Shown here in pieces: positions 23,180 to 31,517 of a DNA stretch of 64,000 bases. The notes beneath the pieces were generated by a model. It did not search any database and was not told where the DNA came from. It was given only the letters and a program-made list of their open reading frames with translations. The DNA is taken from positions 1,088,001-1,152,000 of the forward strand of contig OZ245046.1 of NCBI GenBank assembly GCA_965224245.1, read 5' to 3'. A program made the position numbers and the translations under genes. Source of the stretch: Candidatus Eiseniibacteriota bacterium (GTDB taxonomy: Bacteria > Eisenbacteria > RBG-16-71-46 > CAZAMP01). Numbering within the stretch: position 1 is the stretch's first letter; each line of letters opens with the position of its first letter.

Positions 23180-23659
23180 ATGACCACGACGATCCGCGAC
23201 CAGATCGCGCGCGACGAGATCGCGCGCGATGACATGTCGATCGACTGTCCAGAGCTGTGGCCGCCTCTCGAATCGCGACGTCCGACGCTGCTCTACTCCG
23301 GTACCTGACGGTTCTGTCGATGGGCGGCGCGGGTCGTCGCCAGGATCGATCGAAGCCGCCGGGTGAGCCTGTTGCCGCTGGCCGATCCCGAGGCCGGGCG
23401 ACTCCTGGCCGACGTTCCCGAGGATCGACGCCTCGGGTCCTGGTGGCTCGTCTCGTCCGATGGCAGGCCCGTCCCGGGAGATCGAGGGGGTGGCATCGCC
23501 CTCCTGACGGCGCTGGGGCCCACGCACCGTCTGGGACGCGTGCTCGGCGCGCTCGGCCTGTCGGCCACCGTGGACGCTCTGGATCGCTGGCTGTCCGTCA
23601 CCCGCGGACGCCTCGGCCGGTTCGTCCCGGACGGTCCGGCGCCTCGCTGCTTTCCCTAG
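23180..23659 (+). CDS. DCC1/DUF393-like thiol-disulfide oxidoreductase, candidate selenoprotein (UGA at 23306-23308, UxxC)
   Basis: AAGGAGGA RBS; ORFs 23060-23308 and 23363-23659 are in one frame; read-through gives 'LLYSGT-U-RFCRWAARVVARIDRSRRVSLLPL', matching the DCC pattern 'LYDGxCxFC'; hairpin immediately 3' of TGA. Confidence 0.8.
23309..23348 (+). promoter_or_regulatory. Putative bacterial SECIS hairpin
   Basis: CGGTTCTG (23309-16) pairs with CAGGATCG (23341-48); GGCGGC/GTCGTC upper stem; apical loop GCGG starts 21 nt after UGA. Confidence 0.65.
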
Positions 23660-23739: not shown

Positions 23740-25791
23740 ATGACCCGAGATGCACGCGCCCACACTCGGTCTTGCGGACCCGTCCGAGGCTCGCGACGCG
23801 GGCGCTGGCGGGCGCTCAGCCTCGTGCTGGTTCACGTCGTGGCGGGGCTCCATGTGCTCCACTGGTGGCGCACCGGCCGGACGATCACCCCGGTCGAGCC
23901 CAGCGAGGCCATGCAGACGCTGGGCGAGGGGCTGGTCAACGCCGGCTTCGTCCTCTTCGTCGTGCTCATCCTGGGTACGATGATCTTCGGCCGGTTCTTC
24001 TGCGGCTGGGCCTGTCACATCGTCGCCCTCCAGGATCTCTGCACGACGCTTCTCCGGAAGCTCCGGATCGAGCCGAGGCCGTTTCGCTCGCGCCTTCTCG
24101 TGTACGTCCCCCTGGCGGCGGCCGTCTACATGTTCGTCGCCCCGACGGTCGTGCGGCTGTGGCTCGGGCAGTCGTTCCCGGGACTCCGCGCGCACTTCGA
24201 GACCGACGACTTCTGGGCACGCTTTCCGGACTGGCCGATCGCCGTGCTGACGTTCGTGGTGTGTGGGTTCGTGGCCGTGTGGGTGCTCGGGAACAAGGGG
24301 TTCTGCACCTACGCGTGTCCGTACGGTGGCATCTTCGGGCTGGCCGATCGGGCCGCGCCGGGCCGCATTCGCGTGACCGATGCCTGTGACGGCTGCGCGC
24401 ACTGCACGGTGAGCTGCACCTCCAACGTTCGCGTCCACGAGGAGGTGCGAACCTGGGGCATGGTGGTCGATCCGGGCTGCATGAAGTGCACGGACTGCAT
24501 CAGCGTCTGTCCGATGGGCGCGCTCCACTACGGCTTCGGCGCACCCGGCCACAAGCGCCGGACGGATGCTCCTCCCGTGCGGCCTCGATACGACTTCACC
24601 TGGCCTCAGGAGATCGCGATGGCGGCGATCTTCCTGGTGTCGATCGTCACGTTCCTGGCGCTCTACGACGCGGTGCCGCTTCTGATGGCGCTCGGTCTGG
24701 CCGCGATCACCACGCACGTCGTGATGACCCTGGCTCGTCTCCGGACGGATCGGAACGTGACGTTCGCGCGTCATCGCCTGCGGACCGCCGGGCGCATGCA
24801 GCGCCGTGGGTGGGTGTTCGCGGTGCTCGCGGTCGTGTGGACGCTCTTCACGCTCCACAGCGCGGCCGTGCAGGCGAACGCGCTGGCCGGACAGCGGGCG
24901 GTGGCGGCGGCGCGAAAGGCACCGGCGGCACCGGTGGACGCGCTGGAACACGGCCGGCGACTCCTCGAGCGTGCCCGCTCGTGGGGTCTGTTCGAATCCC
25001 CACAGCTCGACGTTCGCCTGGCGGCGGTCAACGCGCAGCTCGGCGACGTCGGCGCCGCCGAGGCACTCTACCGGCGGGCGCTCGCGCACGAGCCCGATCT
25101 TCCGGAGGCCCACCACGCGCTGGCCCGGATCGCGCGAGAGCGCGGCGATCTTCCGGGGGCCCTGAAGCACCTCGAGGCCGTGGTGAACGAGGAGCCCGAG
25201 TTTCCGAGCGGTCACAACGATCTCGCCGAGGTGCTCCTGGATCTGGATCGCAGTGGGGATGCCGTCGCGGCGATGGAGGTGCTCGTGGCGCGGCGGCCGC
25301 ACCATCTTCCGTTCAGGGTGACGCTGGCGGTGGTGACCGCGCACGACGGACGGGTGGACGAGGCGCTCGCGCAGCTGCGCGCGATCGCCGAGGCACATCC
25401 CGAGGACGCGTCGTCGCGGCTCATGTACGGCCTCATCCTCGCCTCCGAGGGTCGGCTGGAGGACGCGCTGGCGTCGGTGCGCGCGTCGCTGCGTGTGGAT
25501 CCGGAGAACGCCGAGGCGCACTACACGTGCGCGCGGCTCCTGATCCAGCTCCGCCGCACCGACGAGCTGGCGACACATCTGGAGGAGGCGTGCCGGCTGG
25601 ATCCGTTCCAGCCCACGTACGCCACGGCGTGGGCGGCACTGATGGCGCGCTCCGGCCGGGCCGATGCACTCGTGGCTGCGTTGCGGGCCCGGGCGGCGGG
25701 CGATCGAGCCGCACGCTTCCGGCTGCTCCACCTCCATCGCGCGCTCGGCCACGAGGCGGATGCGGGGGCGCTGGCGCGGGAGTTCGAGTGA
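23740..25791 (+). CDS. Membrane 4Fe-4S binding protein (NapH/YccM-like) with C-terminal TPR domain
   Basis: 'GRFFCGWACH', 'FCTYACPYG', 'CDGCAHCTVSC', 'CMKCTDCISVCP'; several TMs; TPR helices in the C-terminal third; TAGAAT ends 6 nt before ATG. Confidence 0.88.
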   Translation: MTRDARAHTRSCGPVRGSRRGRWRALSLVLVHVVAGLHVLHWWRTGRTITPVEPSEAMQTLGEGLVNAGFVLFVVLILGTMIFGRFFCGWACHIVALQDLCTTLLRKLRIEPRPFRSRLLVYVPLAAAVYMFVAPTVVRLWLGQSFPGLRAHFETDDFWARFPDWPIAVLTFVVCGFVAVWVLGNKGFCTYACPYGGIFGLADRAAPGRIRVTDACDGCAHCTVSCTSNVRVHEEVRTWGMVVDPGCMKCTDCISVCPMGALHYGFGAPGHKRRTDAPPVRPRYDFTWPQEIAMAAIFLVSIVTFLALYDAVPLLMALGLAAITTHVVMTLARLRTDRNVTFARHRLRTAGRMQRRGWVFAVLAVVWTLFTLHSAAVQANALAGQRAVAAARKAPAAPVDALEHGRRLLERARSWGLFESPQLDVRLAAVNAQLGDVGAAEALYRRALAHEPDLPEAHHALARIARERGDLPGALKHLEAVVNEEPEFPSGHNDLAEVLLDLDRSGDAVAAMEVLVARRPHHLPFRVTLAVVTAHDGRVDEALAQLRAIAEAHPEDASSRLMYGLILASEGRLEDALASVRASLRVDPENAEAHYTCARLLIQLRRTDELATHLEEACRLDPFQPTYATAWAALMARSGRADALVAALRARAAGDRAARFRLLHLHRALGHEADAGALAREFE

Positions 25792-25915
25792 GCGTGCGCC
25801 ACGCTCGCCGCGAGCCGCCGTGTGCGACCGTGTTCCGGTGGTACAATCGACGTCGTTCGGTGGCTCACGCGACGGCGCGTCGTGACGTCTGATCAAACTC
25901 GAACGATCCGGGACG

Positions 25916-26605
25916 ATGCAAATGAGATCGATGCACGCCTTCGGTATCGCGATGCTGCTCGGCGGAAGCGCCGGTGCAGAGAAGATCCCGGTGGACGACG
26001 GCGCCTCCCTCGACGGAGGCGGGCTCTGCGACGGGTGGTACGACGTCGTACTCCGCGGTGACGGTGCGGGCATCCCCGACTGCGATCCCGACGGGATCAT
26101 GCTCGGTCCGCTGGTTCTCGACGGGTACTATCTGATCACCGGCGTGCTTCTCGAGGTGGACATCGACCACACATGGGTGGGGGATCTCCGGCTCCAGCTC
26201 TTCTTCGACGAGGACTGCGACGGGACGCCGGAGGTGGGGCCGATGGCCGCGCTCTGCCGTCCCGGCCTGGCCGGCTGCGACGCGGACGGATGCTGCGGAT
26301 GCTCGGGCAACCTCGTCGGGATCTATCACTTCGTCGAGCCCCGGACGGGTATCGATCCGCTCGGAGAGCCGGTCTGTCCGGGCGACTTCCCGCCGGGGTG
26401 CTACGCCGAGGCACCCGATACCGAGGTTTCCTTCGGCGCTATGGATAGCGGCAGCTACTTCGGGGGGTGCTTCACGCTGTTCGCAGCGGACGGTGCCTGT
26501 GCGGACACGGGCACCATTCACGAGTGGGCGGTGCACGTCGAGCTACAGCACTACGTGCCGGCGCGCCCGACCACGTGGTCGAGGCTGAAGTCGCGCTACC
26601 GCTGA
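25916..26605 (+). CDS. Secreted Cys/Asp-rich protein with proprotein-convertase P-domain-like fold and C-terminal 'TTWSRLKSRYR' tail
   Basis: Signal peptide; 'VDIDHTWVGDLRLQL' and 'DTGTIHEW' resemble the P-domain; 12 Cys including GCCGC. Confidence 0.7.
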   Translation: MQMRSMHAFGIAMLLGGSAGAEKIPVDDGASLDGGGLCDGWYDVVLRGDGAGIPDCDPDGIMLGPLVLDGYYLITGVLLEVDIDHTWVGDLRLQLFFDEDCDGTPEVGPMAALCRPGLAGCDADGCCGCSGNLVGIYHFVEPRTGIDPLGEPVCPGDFPPGCYAEAPDTEVSFGAMDSGSYFGGCFTLFAADGACADTGTIHEWAVHVELQHYVPARPTTWSRLKSRYR

Positions 26606-26615
26606 CGGGATGACG

Positions 26616-26804
26616 TCAGTCCGTCCGAGTGCGGATCTCGCTGTCGGAATCAGTGGCCGCGATCGCCCTTGGGGGTTCCTGGTCGTCGCGGGTCCGGCAC
26701 GCGGACCCCGGCGAGGCTCAGGTCGGCACCCCGAGCCGGGGGAAGACGATCGTCTGGAGCAGGATCCAGCCACCGATGAGGCCGATCGCCAGCAAGATGT
26801 CCAT
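26616..26804 (-). CDS. Small membrane peptide, candidate selenoprotein (UGA at 26720-26718); absent from the ORF track
   Basis: GGGGAGG RBS before ATG 26804; MDILLAIGLIGGWILLQTIVFPRLGVPT-U-ASPGSACRTRDDQEPPRAIAATDSDSEIRTRTD (62 aa); strong hairpin right after TGA. Confidence 0.7.
26686..26717 (-). promoter_or_regulatory. Putative bacterial SECIS hairpin
   Basis: Minus strand after UGA: TCGC..GGGTCCG-CGTGC-CGGACCC-GCGA; perfect 7-bp upper stem; loop begins 17 nt after UGA with GU at loop positions 2-3. Confidence 0.65.
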
Positions 26805-26999
26805 GTCAGAGCCTCCCCTCGGGGGCCGAAACGACTGGTGAGCGTCGACGCAGAGATAGGATGGAGGAAAGCGGCCGGAAGTTTCAATCGTTCGTGCTCG
26901 AGATCGATCACAGGCGCCCCGATGTTCGACACGCCCGATCCAGGGACAGGTCTCCGCGTGGCGCGGGGTCCGAGCCGCGGACGTCAGATGCGGCGGCGG

Positions 27000-27989
27000 T
27001 CAGCGCGACGACGGATGCGTGGCGCCGGCGATCAGACGCAGGGATTCCTCGATCTCGGACTCCGGCGCACCGCCGAAGTCGTGCCACAGGAGTGCTTCGG
27101 TCACGCCGAGCTCGGCGAGACGGTCGAGGCTGGCGGCGAACGTCTGTCGCGCGCCGATGAACCCGCGGCCGCCCCGGGCGGTCTCGGTCACGACCTCCTC
27201 GCCATGGGGCGGTTGTCTCCGGGCCGCGGCCATCCGGTCGAAACCGCGGGTGGCACGCGCCATCGCCTCGGCGTCGGTCGCGGCGACGCACGTGAACAGG
27301 GCCGCTCCTACCTCGGCCCGATCGGCGCTCCGGCCGCCGGCCTCGAGTCCTGTGCGGTGGGCGGCGGTCATCGACGCGATCGCCTCGTGGTTGCCGAGGT
27401 CCGGTGTGGTCAACACGAGGATCGGATCGCCATCCTCACCGGCCGCGCGCGCGGCCTCGGCCGAGCCCACCGCACGCCAGATCGGCGGCATCGGCTCCTG
27501 CACCGGCGATACGCGGCTGATCAGGTCTCCGTACGATCGGTGTCGGCCGTCGATCGTGCCACCGGTGCCGCTCCACGCGTGTCGGAGCATCCCGAGTGCC
27601 TCGTCGAAGCGAGATCGCTTCTCGTCGAACGGGATGCCCAGTGCCTGGAACTCGACGGGGGAGATGCCCGAGCCCACGCCGAGATCCAGCCGTCCACCGG
27701 AGAGGCGATCGACGAGCGCGTACTCCTCGGCGAGGAGCAGGGGATCTCGAAACGGCAGGACGGCCACGGCGACGCCGAGGCGCAGGCGCCGGGTCCGTTG
27801 CGCGGCGGCCGCGAGGAACACCGCCGGGCTCGGCATGCGGCTCACCGCGCGCCCGTGATGCTCGGCGATCCAGAACCCGTGGTAGCCGAGCGCCTCGGCG
27901 AGCACGGCACGACGCAGCGCTGTCTCGTAGACGTCCCGGTCCGGCCCGGGGGAGAGCTCCGGCATCAGCGAGAAGATCGATTGCCTCAA
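27000..27989 (-). CDS. LLM-class (luciferase-like) flavin-dependent monooxygenase
   Basis: 'AEALGYHGFWIAEHH', 'RLRLGVAVAVLPFRDPLLLAEEYALVDRLSGGRLDLGVGSG'; TTG start. Confidence 0.92.
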   Translation of the reverse strand: MRQSIFSLMPELSPGPDRDVYETALRRAVLAEALGYHGFWIAEHHGRAVSRMPSPAVFLAAAAQRTRRLRLGVAVAVLPFRDPLLLAEEYALVDRLSGGRLDLGVGSGISPVEFQALGIPFDEKRSRFDEALGMLRHAWSGTGGTIDGRHRSYGDLISRVSPVQEPMPPIWRAVGSAEAARAAGEDGDPILVLTTPDLGNHEAIASMTAAHRTGLEAGGRSADRAEVGAALFTCVAATDAEAMARATRGFDRMAAARRQPPHGEEVVTETARGGRGFIGARQTFAASLDRLAELGVTEALLWHDFGGAPESEIEESLRLIAGATHPSSR

Positions 27990-28246
27990 TGTCCACGATA
28001 CCCCTGTGAGACGTCGGCGGACGAGCCCAAGTCATCCTCGACCACCCGATACGGGGAATGTCCGCATGAGGATGCGCCCTTTTGCGGGATCGTCGGTGCC
28101 GTCCCGGCTCGCGCGATACTCACCGGCCGCCTGTGATCCGTCTCACGAGCCACGTATACTCGATCTCGCGCACCGGGCGGGACACCGGATCACGATATCG
28201 AGCTCGCGCGCCCGTCGCAACGGATCCGCGATCGAGGGGAAGCGAC

Positions 28247-28642
28247 GTGAGGAATCGGATCCACGACGATGAGCGAGCCGCCTCCTGCCTCTACGAGTAT
28301 GTTCGCCGCCACAACGACGCGCTGTCTCGAAAGACGTTCGATCACCTGGCCGAGCTGTTTCACGCCGACGGAGAGCTGTGCTTTCGTGGCCTGAGTCTGG
28401 GACCGTTCGTCGGACCGGAGGACATCACCGGGGCATTCGAGCGTCGGCCGCCCCGGAGCCGGATCGAGATCGGCCCACCGATCACCGTGGGCGACGCGGT
28501 CGAGGCGGAGTTTCGCTCCGCCGGCGCCGTCGGTCCTGCCGAGGGAACGATCCGGCTCGAGCAGGACGGTGGGCGGATCCGGCGGCTGACGATCCACATC
28601 GGCCGGGTCGGCGGCGGCCGCGGCTCGACGGACCGGGATTGA
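28247..28642 (+). CDS. NTF2/SnoaL-like domain protein
   Basis: GAGGGG RBS before GTG 28247; 'Y..RHN.....D.LAELFH.DG.L.F....GPFVG...I..AF' and 'DGGRIRRL' pattern. Confidence 0.65.
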   Translation: MRNRIHDDERAASCLYEYVRRHNDALSRKTFDHLAELFHADGELCFRGLSLGPFVGPEDITGAFERRPPRSRIEIGPPITVGDAVEAEFRSAGAVGPAEGTIRLEQDGGRIRRLTIHIGRVGGGRGSTDRD

Positions 28643-29048
28643 TCACCCCGCGCGTTGCCGACGCGGACTGAAACGCCACGTCATCCGACGAGACTCGCCG
28701 CCCCCGTCGTGTCGCCATGTCGCCAGCCTCGGGTGACGTGCGACACGATCCGGATGGGAGATCACCGGACCGCGACCGGGCTCACGCGGGTATCCACCGC
28801 GTCGAGTAGGCGTAACGCCACCGGCCCCGACGGCGTCGAGCGGCGGCATCCGACATGCAAGTGCACATGCGAGGCGCGTCGGCGAAGCTCGCCGCTCCCC
28901 GAGCGCGGACGCTCGCGCGCGTCGTTCGTCCGCGCGCTCTCGAGACCCCGGATGTTGCTTCCCCGGATACGGCGCATGTCGCATGCGAGGCGTCACTGCC
29001 CTCGGCAGCCCCTGGAAGGTCCTCCTCGCCACGGACGATGGAGACGCG

Positions 29049-30893
29049 ATGACCATGAGAGCAGGCTCGGGCTCGGATCCAGACCGAGCGCAACGGGTCG
29101 GGTTCCCCTCCGCGGCCGTGATCCGGGTCGGCGTGGCCCTCGTGGCGGCCGCGATCCCGCCGGCGCCGGGGGACGGATCGGCGGCGGAGGCGACGCCCGA
29201 CGAGGGCCGGCGTCCGGCCCATCCGCCGCACGGCGCTACTCCAGCGGCGGAGACGCCGGACGCGAACGCGCTGCGCGCGATCCTCGACGCGAGGCTCACC
29301 GCGCACCACCGCCGGTTCGGCATCGCCGTGCGTGAGGCCGGCGTGCGCTCGTGCATCGAGAGTGTCACGGTCTACTGCCCGAGCGAGCTCGTTCCGGACG
29401 TCCGGACGTACTACGAGAGCTACTGGGAATCCGGACCCTGGCCGTACGAGGTCGACGTGGTCGCGGTGGACGAGCTCGGCACGGTCACGGGGGGAGAAGA
29501 TCCGGCTGCGTTCCGCGCAGCGCTCGCGAGCGACATCTCCGAGCGTCACGCGGGCGCCTGCAACTACGTGATGCTGATCGGCGACGCAAACGACCATCCG
29601 GCCTTCGACGCGGAGGGCCAGCTCCACGAAGCGACGTGGGGGGTCGGGGAGTGGGCGGACGTCTGGGCCGAGCAGGTCGCGCGCGGGGCACCTCGCCACG
29701 GGCAGCCCGGAAACGACGTGATCCCCAGCTTCCTCGTGCCCGACACCGACCCCCCTGGCGTCAATCTCGCGGGGGTCGCGCCGTACCTCCACACCGACAA
29801 ACCCTACGTTCCCGGCGGCACCGACATGATCCTCACCCGGCTCCCGGTCGATTCCGCCGTCGAGTTCCTGGCATGGGCGTACAAGGAGATCACCGTCAAC
29901 GATCGCTACCTGGAGCTCGGCAACGACGGTCGGGCCGCGCGGGTGCTGATGGCCGTCGGCGACGTCGACCATCGCGCCGACGGAGAGGGTGCCTGGGTCG
30001 CCGCCATCGCGGACTCGGTGGCCGAGCACCTGTCCGGCGAGTCGCTCGCCCGTCTCGACGAGTCCGCGCTCGAGGGCCCGTGCGATCGCAACGCCGCGCT
30101 GATCGACGAGTGGGGACACCGCCCCGAGCTGTTCCTGATTCCGGCCGCGGTAGCCAGTGACCGATACGCTCCCGGTACGTTCGCCGACGAGCGGGTCGCC
30201 GGCTGCGCGTTCGACGTGTGGCAGCTGGACGAGTACACGTATCCACCCGCAGTCATGCTGGCGGCCGGCGCCGGCGACTTCGCCCGCACCGAGACGCGAG
30301 GGAGCCCCGTGTTCGAGGATCTGCTCGGGGGGGCGTGGCGTCGGGGCTCGCCGTTCGTCATGGCTCCTGTCGCCGGCATCCGGCAGGCGACGACCGCTCG
30401 GATCGCCACCACGTTCGTGGACGAGCTCCTGCGCGGCGATCGCTCCCGGTCTCTGGCCGAGATCGCAACGCGCGCGCTGGAGCGCGTCGTGGCGGAGCAT
30501 GCCGGCGACTCGACGCTCGTCCGCGTCGTGTCCTCGATCGCGCTGTTCGGCAGCCCCCTGACGCGATGGGCGTTTCGGGAGCCCGAGCTGTCGGCCGGCG
30601 CCGGAGATCGCGCGTCTCCGGTGCCGCCCGACGTCACCGTGCCGAACCCGTTCGCGACCGGTTCCGCCGTACACCTGCGTCTTCCGGACGCGGGCCACGT
30701 CGAGCTGGTCGTGTACGACGTCATGGGGCGCCGCGTGCGAACACTCGCACGGGGCCAGAGCCCGGCCGGACATCGGCGGATACGATGGGATGCCCGGGAC
30801 GACGACGGTCGCGCCCTGAGGGCGGGTGCCTACTACGTGCGGCTCACGACGCGGGGCCGTCCGGTCACCGTGTCGGTGGTCGTCGTCCCGTGA
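29049..30893 (+). CDS. Gingipain/peptidase C25-like protein (apparently lacking the catalytic dyad) with FlgD-Ig C-terminal domain
   Basis: 'YVMLIGDA', 'TDKPY', 'TRLPVD..E...AYK', 'LFGSP' resemble C25; 'PNPF...VYDVMGRRVRTL...WDARDD' tail; start uncertain. Confidence 0.6.
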   Translation: MTMRAGSGSDPDRAQRVGFPSAAVIRVGVALVAAAIPPAPGDGSAAEATPDEGRRPAHPPHGATPAAETPDANALRAILDARLTAHHRRFGIAVREAGVRSCIESVTVYCPSELVPDVRTYYESYWESGPWPYEVDVVAVDELGTVTGGEDPAAFRAALASDISERHAGACNYVMLIGDANDHPAFDAEGQLHEATWGVGEWADVWAEQVARGAPRHGQPGNDVIPSFLVPDTDPPGVNLAGVAPYLHTDKPYVPGGTDMILTRLPVDSAVEFLAWAYKEITVNDRYLELGNDGRAARVLMAVGDVDHRADGEGAWVAAIADSVAEHLSGESLARLDESALEGPCDRNAALIDEWGHRPELFLIPAAVASDRYAPGTFADERVAGCAFDVWQLDEYTYPPAVMLAAGAGDFARTETRGSPVFEDLLGGAWRRGSPFVMAPVAGIRQATTARIATTFVDELLRGDRSRSLAEIATRALERVVAEHAGDSTLVRVVSSIALFGSPLTRWAFREPELSAGAGDRASPVPPDVTVPNPFATGSAVHLRLPDAGHVELVVYDVMGRRVRTLARGQSPAGHRRIRWDARDDDGRALRAGAYYVRLTTRGRPVTVSVVVVP

Positions 30894-30899
30894 CGCGGT

Positions 30900-31517
30900 C
30901 TACCAGATCGACCGGAGATGTCCCCAGCTCGTGTCCTCCGATGGCGTCTCGACGTCCAGCGTGAGCGTCACGTCGTCATGAAACGCATCGGTGGATGCGC
31001 CGACAGGTCGCGTGCCCCGGAGTCTGATCCGGATCGTGCGCGTGCCCGTCGGCACCACGCGCTCGTCAGAGACCCGGTTCCATTCGTTGATCGGCGTGAT
31101 GTCGCCGCTCGAGTACGTTTCGAGCGCGACGTCCGACGCATCACGAAACTCGACCACCACGCTGGCGAAGTCGTTGGTCCCCGCTTCGCCGTTGGAGCGG
31201 CCGTACGCCGAGAAGCTCGACGTGACCCGGCCGGCGTCGATCTGGGTGTCGAGCGTGGAGACGTCCACGTCCTGATGGATCTCGTTGACCCAGGGTCCGG
31301 CGTCACCGGTGATGCCGCCGTGAAACGAATAGGTCCCGGCGTACACCGCCGCCGCATCCCCGGTGACCGCGTAGCCGTTGCCATCGGAGTCGGTCCATCC
31401 GCTGAGGTCTCCGGTCTCGGCATCGCCGTTCACGACGAGGTTGTCGCCGGCATGCGCGGCTCCAGCCAGGAGCCAGACGGCGAGTAGGGCGATGCTCGGG
31501 TGCAAGGCGGCGCTCAT
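30900..31517 (-). CDS. Secreted galactose-binding-like (CBM/FBA-like) protein with C-terminal 'TSWGHLRSIW' tail
   Basis: GGAGG RBS; signal peptide; 'NLVVNGDAETGDLSGW', 'VPTGTRTIRIRL', 'DAFHDDVTL'. Confidence 0.72.
   Translation of the reverse strand: MSAALHPSIALLAVWLLAGAAHAGDNLVVNGDAETGDLSGWTDSDGNGYAVTGDAAAVYAGTYSFHGGITGDAGPWVNEIHQDVDVSTLDTQIDAGRVTSSFSAYGRSNGEAGTNDFASVVVEFRDASDVALETYSSGDITPINEWNRVSDERVVPTGTRTIRIRLRGTRPVGASTDAFHDDVTLTLDVETPSEDTSWGHLRSIW

Follow-up and report, generated by a model that had tools for sequence, protein, structure and literature searches.

A short membrane-anchored gene with an in-frame TGA codon is a well-supported member of a predicted, uncharacterised selenoprotein family

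The question raised by this locus is whether a TGA triplet inside a very short reading frame is read as selenocysteine (Sec) and, if so, what such a peptide could be for. In the window, by which we mean the whole stretch of 64,000 nucleotides that was analysed, the gene is read on the minus strand (26804-26616), and its 62-codon coding sequence (26616..26804) includes the terminal TGA stop (26618-26616). A Shine-Dalgarno sequence GGGGAGG (26812..26818) lies 7 nt before the ATG start (26804-26802); 28 codons ending in P-R-L-G-V-P-T are followed by the in-frame TGA of codon 29 (26718..26720) and by 33 more codons. Residues 2-23 (26736..26801) form a single hydrophobic helix, predicted to be transmembrane from AlphaFold2, hydropathy and charge bias, and residues 22-28 (26721..26741) carry the motif P-x-[LFM]-G-[VI]-x-T, which is conserved in the homologues. 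Cys36 (26697..26699), the putative resolving cysteine, stands at +7 from the TGA, while residues 37-62 (26619..26696) make up a polar, unconserved tail that is probably disordered, judging from the AlphaFold2 coil and from the tails of the family. Behind the TGA a hairpin (26690..26708) is formed by GGGTCCG (26708-26702), the loop CGTGC (26701-26697) and CGGACCC (26696-26690), and the codon of Cys36 sits within this loop.

A preliminary description had listed the same elements, leaving the strand unstated. The ribosome-binding site, ATG, helix, TGA29, hairpin and Cys36 were all found in the sequence, and the minus strand also has the continuation of 33 codons with a Cys seven residues past the TGA; read on the plus strand, these coordinates give an unrelated frame. 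The placing of the stem 17 nt downstream has to be corrected, since the stem begins at the 10th base after the TGA and the 17th base is where the loop starts. The gene is single-copy in the genome according to a profile search. Letters 26300-27300 of the window were found identical in two public-run contigs from one sample, possibly the window's own source, and none of the public runs listed was a holder of RNA. A consensus search of 26400-28400 returned no sigma-70 promoter and no intrinsic terminator, and Rfam gave no match across 24000-30000 of the window.

Homologues could be reached by profile and six-frame searches only, and a word-index protein search with the single peptide gave no match. 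The six-frame search of 61 related genomes recovered 30 loci; ten of these, in which the motif is missing, were dropped from the counts, and the 20 with the motif all have TGA. Within the window's phylum, all 45 strong profile matches, distributed in 43 of 206 genomes, carry TGA, and nine weak matches, all off-frame or unrelated, were also left out of the counts. The peptide is limited to certain families of the phylum; the two largest, for example, have strong matches in 1 of 89 and 0 of 41 genomes. So that TGA would not be favoured, one genome per species was then scanned with a DNA pattern that admits TGA, TGY, TGG, TAA, TAG and TAY after the Thr. At least 117 homologous loci were obtained; among the 117 matches listed, 110 have TGA, four TGC and three TGT at the position of codon 29, and none has TAA, TAG, TGG or TAY, although the pattern allowed them. 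The true stops of the same 117 reading frames are TGA in 64, TAG in 27 and TAA in 26 cases, and at the 45 TGA loci under 52% GC among these matches they are TGA in 17, TAA in 16 and TAG in 12. The homologues start 28-29 codons ahead of the Sec codon, and in 87 of the 117 listed an SD-like 4-mer stands ahead of the start (a raw count).

The taxa among the 117 matches listed are about 49 Desulfobacterota/deltaproteobacteria, 27 Planctomycetota, 13 Acidobacteriota, eight Nitrospirota, three Chloroflexota, two Myxococcota, two Spirochaetota and one Bacteroidota, with 12 lacking a phylum name. Besides the window's own phylum, the family is therefore present in at least seven that are named, and at least 157 distinct members were found. 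All seven Cys loci among the matches listed are from planctomycetes.

The hairpin was evaluated against the published description of bacterial SECIS (bSECIS) elements. According to the accessible part of PMC13188914, these have a loop of 3-9 nt with G in the first two loop positions, located 16-37 nt from the UGA, a stem of 4-16 bp and a minimum free energy of -7.5 kcal/mol or lower. The window hairpin (5-nt loop CGUGC with G at position 2 followed by U, 16-nt spacer, 7-bp stem, -11.9 kcal/mol) agrees with all these values in our own filter, which was written after the first homologues had been seen. Its loop sequence recurs in other Sec hairpins. Nevertheless, it is no better than shuffled sequences (z-scores of 0.50, 0.10, -0.83 and 0.67); and 32 of the 1240 TGA trinucleotides of the window are followed by a comparable hairpin of -8 kcal/mol or lower, although no more than 0.7% of 1500 random genomic TGAs reach -11.9 kcal/mol. 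In a genome of 69% GC the hairpin alone is thus not beyond chance, and the case rests on its conservation across homologues. With a filter for G-G/U at the loop start, a hairpin at -2 kcal/mol is found behind 105 of the 110 TGA codons, none of the seven Cys codons and 17 of the 117 terminal stops among the matches listed; at -4 kcal/mol the corresponding counts are 99, 0 and 8. Since synonymously recoded controls of the same peptides keep the hairpin in only 137 of 880 cases, the amino acid sequence does not account for it.

Regarding the decoding machinery, the genome (97% complete) contains selA, selB, selC and selD, all over curated cut-offs, and a tRNA-Sec(UCA). In addition, its selD has an in-frame TGA and a hairpin of its own. 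In a hand-chosen set of 50 of the 117 matches listed, from genomes of unstated completeness and including kin that are not independent, 40 of 43 TGA-type genomes have selA (one of them by a partial match) versus two of seven Cys-type genomes; within Planctomycetota the figures are 19 of 19 versus two of seven. In the window's phylum, selA is present in 185 of 206 genomes and in 39 of the 43 peptide carriers, the four misses being 56-86% complete, and there the co-occurrence is uninformative.

It could be argued that TGA29 is an ordinary stop closing a 28-residue peptide, or a Trp or Gly codon under another genetic code, followed by a hairpin arisen by chance. Such a reading would agree with TGA being the commonest true stop at these loci, with a window hairpin no better than its shuffles and with the Trp found in some database proteins (see below). 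Nevertheless, we regard it as very improbable, because no TAA, TAG or TGG occurs among the 117 DNA matches listed, Cys homologues exist, the hairpin stands behind TGA and not behind Cys codons, selA co-varies with the codon, a Cys is conserved after the TGA, and this genome has a tRNA-Sec(UCA) and a TGA-containing selD. A terminator reading of the hairpin was rejected together with the alternative code. The codon, hairpin and selA evidence together indicate Sec at codon 29, and from these comparisons we consider it almost certain that the gene is a genuine selenoprotein gene. The preliminary proposal of a real small gene with Sec at its TGA is therefore supported, and neither outcome named there as speaking against it was observed: homologues carry TGA or Cys and none of those listed carries TAA or TAG, the SECIS-like hairpin with a G near the loop start is conserved, and the Sec machinery is complete.

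Conservation beyond the TGA, which that description had named as a check, is seen in a second Cys, found in 114 of the 117 tails of the matches listed versus 100 of 234 off-frame controls. Among the same 117 it lies at +5 in 88, at +6 to +24 in 26 and is absent in three, and in some tails it is one of the last residues. The +5 Cys is kept in 104 of 109 Cys-type database proteins and in all seven hairpin-less Cys loci among the matches listed, so the constraint acts at the level of the protein. After Sec there is a preference for M/L-S-x-[SA]-C. The sequences compared give U-x4-C as the family motif, from which some members depart by a distant or missing Cys, and the U-x6-C spacing that had been put forward as the motif is a local variant. 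A Cys at +5 is not a strict criterion either, because 29 of the 117 clear members listed deviate from it. Among the matches listed, eight of the 157 distinct members have no second Cys, and six of these eight adjoin a DUF302 gene; a Cys at +5 to +7 is missing in 14 of 15 DUF302-linked members versus 34 of 142 others, though the DUF302-linked members may form one related subfamily. A Sec-Cys spacing that ranges from +5 to +24 is consistent with a flexible redox pair.

As for the remainder of the protein, AlphaFold2 gives one helix at residues 2-23, with pLDDT 94 and 89 over the first 20 residues, and coil thereafter (pLDDT 58-71). The hydropathy of the helix is about 1.9-2.0, and the conservation of its surface is limited to W, L/Q and the terminal motif. 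P22, G25 and T28 are invariant in the 20 homologues found without a fixed pattern (20/20), and in 101 aligned rows P22 and T28 are invariant and G25 reaches at least 90%. In the 117 matches listed, the tails extend 14-140 residues past Sec or Cys (median 24) and are rich in S, K, G, E and P. The N-terminus of the family is acidic (mean K/R 0.36, D/E 0.84, compared across the helix over unequal stretches of about 8 versus up to 29 residues). This acidic N-terminus and the basic residues after the helix suggest an N-out/C-in orientation, with Sec probably on the cytoplasmic face. We also considered a bacterial lipoprotein, for which the consensus is a basic n-region plus an [LVI][ASTVI][GAS]C lipobox. 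This candidate was rejected in view of the acidic N-terminus, the K/R at -6 in 90% of the family and the Thr at -1, invariant in 20/20 homologues and 101/101 rows.

Among 1.84 billion protein representatives, 2325 score at E <= 0.001; of the best 150 of these, 104 have Cys at the Sec position, 20 have Trp, 13 end at the Thr, seven have other residues and six fall outside the pattern applied. As no TGG was observed among the 117 DNA matches listed, the Trp entries are probably recodings made by gene callers. In line with the earlier suspicion that gene callers would miss it, this gene is truncated or overlooked by them, as the 13 proteins ending at the Thr illustrate. Several Cys-type members carry extra Cys-Cys pairs. 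None of the HMMs of NCBIfam release 20.0 recognised the peptide, including selenobacteriocin, Sao, Tso, KCU-star and UXX-star, which are selenoprotein models as given in the accessible part of PMC13188914, and a comparison of 20 members with NCBIfam yielded only two insignificant matches to ATP synthase b. Pfam has no model for the peptide, a profile search of the PDB gave nothing under E 0.36, and the ESM Atlas contains one unnamed 56-aa cluster (123 members, score 0.91, no Pfam). Ten family members looked up in databases are all just "hypothetical protein".

Another aspect to consider is the gene neighbourhood. At 80 loci with wide flanks we found ArsR in 15, YgaP-like genes in 12, rhodanese in 11, DUF302 in six, MBL-fold in five, TauE in two and DsrE in one. 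At least one of these neighbours is present at 32 of the 80 loci versus 1.6% of random 5-kb segments of the genome; when Trx, TlpA and FmdB are added the figures become 47 of 80 versus 3.1%, and 33 loci have no listed neighbour. This enrichment is inflated, because these very loci had served to train the profiles, the control comes from one genome and kin are not independent. Other neighbours at some loci are rplQ, ECF sigma/anti-sigma, cytochrome bd-like, CcdA, prismane and transport genes. An ECF sigma/zf-HC2 cluster was found at 16 of 149 loci, CcdA at five, and cytochrome bd-like genes behind four planctomycete copies. The order peptide-ArsR-FmdB is common to 13 loci of the window's phylum, and the peptide often stands directly ahead of ArsR-FmdB or of DUF302 with very short gaps. 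For one adjacent ArsR the best solved relatives are PagR, BigR, HlyU and YgaV, and in the alignment of the helix-2 Cys it shares this residue where the relatives have one; adjacent ArsRs score 44 and 52 bits, far under the BigR cut-off of 155. Single loci adjoin an ArsP/HMA permease, a cation efflux protein, HlyD or methyltransferases.

Some of these arrangements deserve mention on their own. In Nitrospirota and one Acidobacteriota (L077, L084, L101, L108, L115, L141, L148 and L189) the peptide cluster is located behind rplQ, where the operon of ribosomal protein genes and rpoA ends. The Cys-type planctomycete copies L076, L078, L083 and L097 lie between a zf-HC2 anti-sigma gene and YgaP-like/cytochrome bd-like genes. 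Furthermore, among the neighbouring FmdB-family zinc-ribbon genes (TIGR02605) all 31 complete ones end in TGA, in most of them after C...G-F-[SGT]; the next stop comes 1-6 codons later, and a bSECIS-type hairpin, often reaching past that stop, is present in 30 of the 31. A C-terminal Sec is thus probable, on this sequence pattern, in the FmdB-family neighbours, and its site differs from the UxxU zinc-ribbon form of deep-Sep Table S1. The loci concerned are L022, L048, L071, L073, L075, L086, L090, L095, L100, L103, L106, L108, L127, L128, L131, L133, L140, L144, L146, L171, L174, L202-L204, L206, L207 and L209-L213, and also G000:C1 near 1822619.

The window's own copy has none of the sulfur or redox neighbours. 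It lies 195 bp behind a gene for an LLM-class flavin-dependent monooxygenase (27000-27989, minus strand; PF00296, E 2e-60, below all NCBIfam subfamily cut-offs shown), which is beside no other of 162 loci. The next gene (25916-26605, plus strand) is convergent and codes for a probably secreted protein, rich in Cys and Asp, that weakly matches the proprotein-convertase P-domain (E 0.008). This protein ends in a T-W-x-x-L-K-x-x-Y tail, and a similar tail is present on the ORF 30900-31517 of the minus strand. A second probable selenoprotein gene was observed 3 kb away (23180-23659, plus strand; TGA at 23306, U-x-x-C, hairpin of -10.3 kcal/mol), and directly behind it lies a gene for a NapH/MauN-like 4Fe-4S membrane ferredoxin fused to TPR repeats (23740-25791, plus strand). 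At the locus of the nearest relative (L069), a YgaP-like gene is directly upstream of the peptide.

The variable Sec-Cys spacing and the gene neighbourhood favour redox or sulfur chemistry, as far as sequence data can indicate. For the product we infer, from its translation to its orientation, chemistry and partners, a minimal thiol/selenol redox or persulfide relay tethered to the membrane, and assign this reading a probability of about 0.5. SelB would bind the hairpin 16 nt behind UGA29 and insert Sec; without this insertion a 28-residue anchor would be made. The product would cross the membrane as one helix, preceded by a short and acidic N-terminus; the invariant P-x-x-G-x-x-T turn would hold Sec at the membrane surface, probably at the cytoplasmic face, and behind it a flexible linker would carry the second Cys and lead into a disordered tail. 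Sulfane sulfur or an oxidised thiol could then be attacked by the selenol; resolution as a selenenyl-sulfide would fall to the downstream Cys or to a Cys of a partner, and thioredoxin-type proteins would recycle the peptide. It would act as an accessory of rhodanese/YgaP/DUF302/persulfide-dioxygenase clusters under the control of ArsR-family regulators. If the persulfide relay is correct, a selenium-dependent step would be added to bacterial reactive-sulfur handling.

In a more specific version the peptide would correspond to the tail of the YgaP membrane domain, free-standing and upgraded with selenium, and its selenol would shuttle persulfide among rhodanese, DUF302 and TauE-type exporters. 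In the accessible part of PMC9774250, the sulfide sensor YgaV of E. coli controls the membrane rhodanese YgaP, with which it is co-transcribed. The YgaP-like domain (PF11127, DUF2892), a frequent neighbour of the family (12 of 80 loci), has a last helix W-x-L-x-K-L-G-[LV]-x-x-C that aligns weakly with the family motif (HHalign 62%, E 7.5e-5 over 14 columns; in another run 53%, E 1.4e-4, with 0 of 60 column shuffles as high). However, this domain has two helices and a C-P motif, and YgaP also a rhodanese domain, whereas the peptide has one helix and none of these; PF11127 matched neither the peptide nor any of the 20 members. On these alignments homology to the YgaP domain is at most tentative, and we hold this version to be possible but rather unlikely. 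The DUF302-linked members without a near Cys would fit it, with a DUF302 protein supplying the resolving thiol in trans. If true, the peptide would be the smallest membrane-tethered sulfane-sulfur carrier and DUF302 would gain a testable function.

The same neighbourhoods admit other functions. Tethered to the membrane, the peptide could bind soft metals or metalloids (As(III), Hg, Cu), with Sec and Cys forming a trap or chaperone for ArsR-controlled efflux. ArsR-family neighbours at 15 of 80 loci, the single loci beside permease, efflux, HlyD or methyltransferase genes and the extra Cys-Cys pairs of several Cys-type members speak for it; nevertheless, a spacing of +5 to +24 and a second Cys that can be lost are unlike a rigid metal site, and neighbours for sulfur trafficking outnumber metal transporters, so that we find it unlikely. 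No better placed, in our judgement, is an accessory subunit or redox sensor in which Sec would act as a switch and not as a carrier; the membrane complexes or regulators that it could serve are cytochrome bd-like, CcdA/TlpA, RND and ECF anti-sigma systems. A single helix is the typical shape of small accessory subunits, and the ECF sigma/zf-HC2, cytochrome bd-like and CcdA neighbours would be in line with such a role, but no single complex is common to most loci and the helix surface is conserved just at W, L/Q and the terminal motif. Considerably less probable is a selenium-sensing leader, in which UGA read-through would couple translation to the gene that follows, ArsR or DUF302, with the peptide as such of minor importance: the very short gaps to ArsR-FmdB and DUF302 would suit it, whereas the hairpin-less Cys-type copies retain the whole peptide motif and the +5 Cys, and the next gene in the window is convergent.

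The preliminary description had presented the peptide as uncharacterised and possibly new. It is uncharacterised in the sense that no description of a function was found in the literature, but the family is not new: it was predicted earlier under a placeholder name in deep-Sep Data S1, with six members, and probably also in Peng 2016 (PMC5029168), the latter link being by name alone. The deep-Sep members resemble the window's peptide in size (49-75 residues from a downstream Met), in the N-terminal hydrophobic helix and in a Cys soon after Sec, and, compared by eye, they share W-x2-L-[QN]-x2-[VI]-L-P-[RK]-[LM]-G-[VI]-x-T-U with the window's family; the window's peptide itself fits through its N-terminal helix and L-P-[RK]-[LM]-G-[VI]-x-T-U. 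All six have U-x4-C, whereas the window's copy has U-x6-C with the Cys at +7. The accessible parts of the published descriptions give no function, topology, Cys homologues or neighbourhood for the family. The placeholder name is absent from deep-Sep Table S1, from the accessible main text of a 2022 review (PMC9312934) and of the GOS paper (PMC2398784), and from the accessible part of a 2026 review (PMC13188914), including its table of 119 families; the accessible parts of PMC4730233 and PMC13745706 contain nothing on it. Among the sources accessible, no paper on the function of the family was found, and the supplement of BSepDB (PMC13326102) and Haft & Tolstoy 2025 may list it. Searches with motif strings returned unrelated matches only, and the new hypothetical proteins DG, DW and DF of deep-Sep are different sequences.

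The window's gene is therefore a well-supported member of a predicted, uncharacterised selenoprotein family. This family bears a placeholder label, is modelled in neither Pfam nor NCBIfam and is truncated or overlooked by gene callers, yet it is widespread: the published range was five organisms, against at least 157 distinct members here. To the earlier prediction we add this breadth, the co-variation of Sec/Cys with the hairpin and selA, the mobile second Cys and a testable link to sulfur-trafficking clusters. Since the peptide is accessible to synthesis and the family is present in cultured Geobacteraceae, its function can be tested directly; cultured carriers are Geomobilimonas luticola JCM 17780, Pelotalea chapellei DSM 13688 and Geobacter sp. 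OR-1 (loci L107, L113 and L123).

The majority of selenoproteins in bacteria are enzymes built from folded domains, and a membrane anchor of 50-60 residues with a Sec/Cys pair as its sole chemistry is an unusual selenoprotein. The eukaryotic SELENOK and SELENOS are likewise small selenoproteins that cross the membrane once and have a disordered part in the cytoplasm; their Sec stands next to the C-terminus and their SECIS in the 3'-UTR. In the peptide, by contrast, Sec directly follows the helix, and no sequence relation is claimed. With the UxxC/CxxU thioredoxin-fold selenoproteins, as presented in the accessible part of PMC13188914 (Table 1), the family shares a Sec near a Cys, an intragenic bSECIS and Cys orthologues in lineages without selA, and it differs from them in having no folded catalytic domain, an x4 or variable spacing and a membrane anchor.
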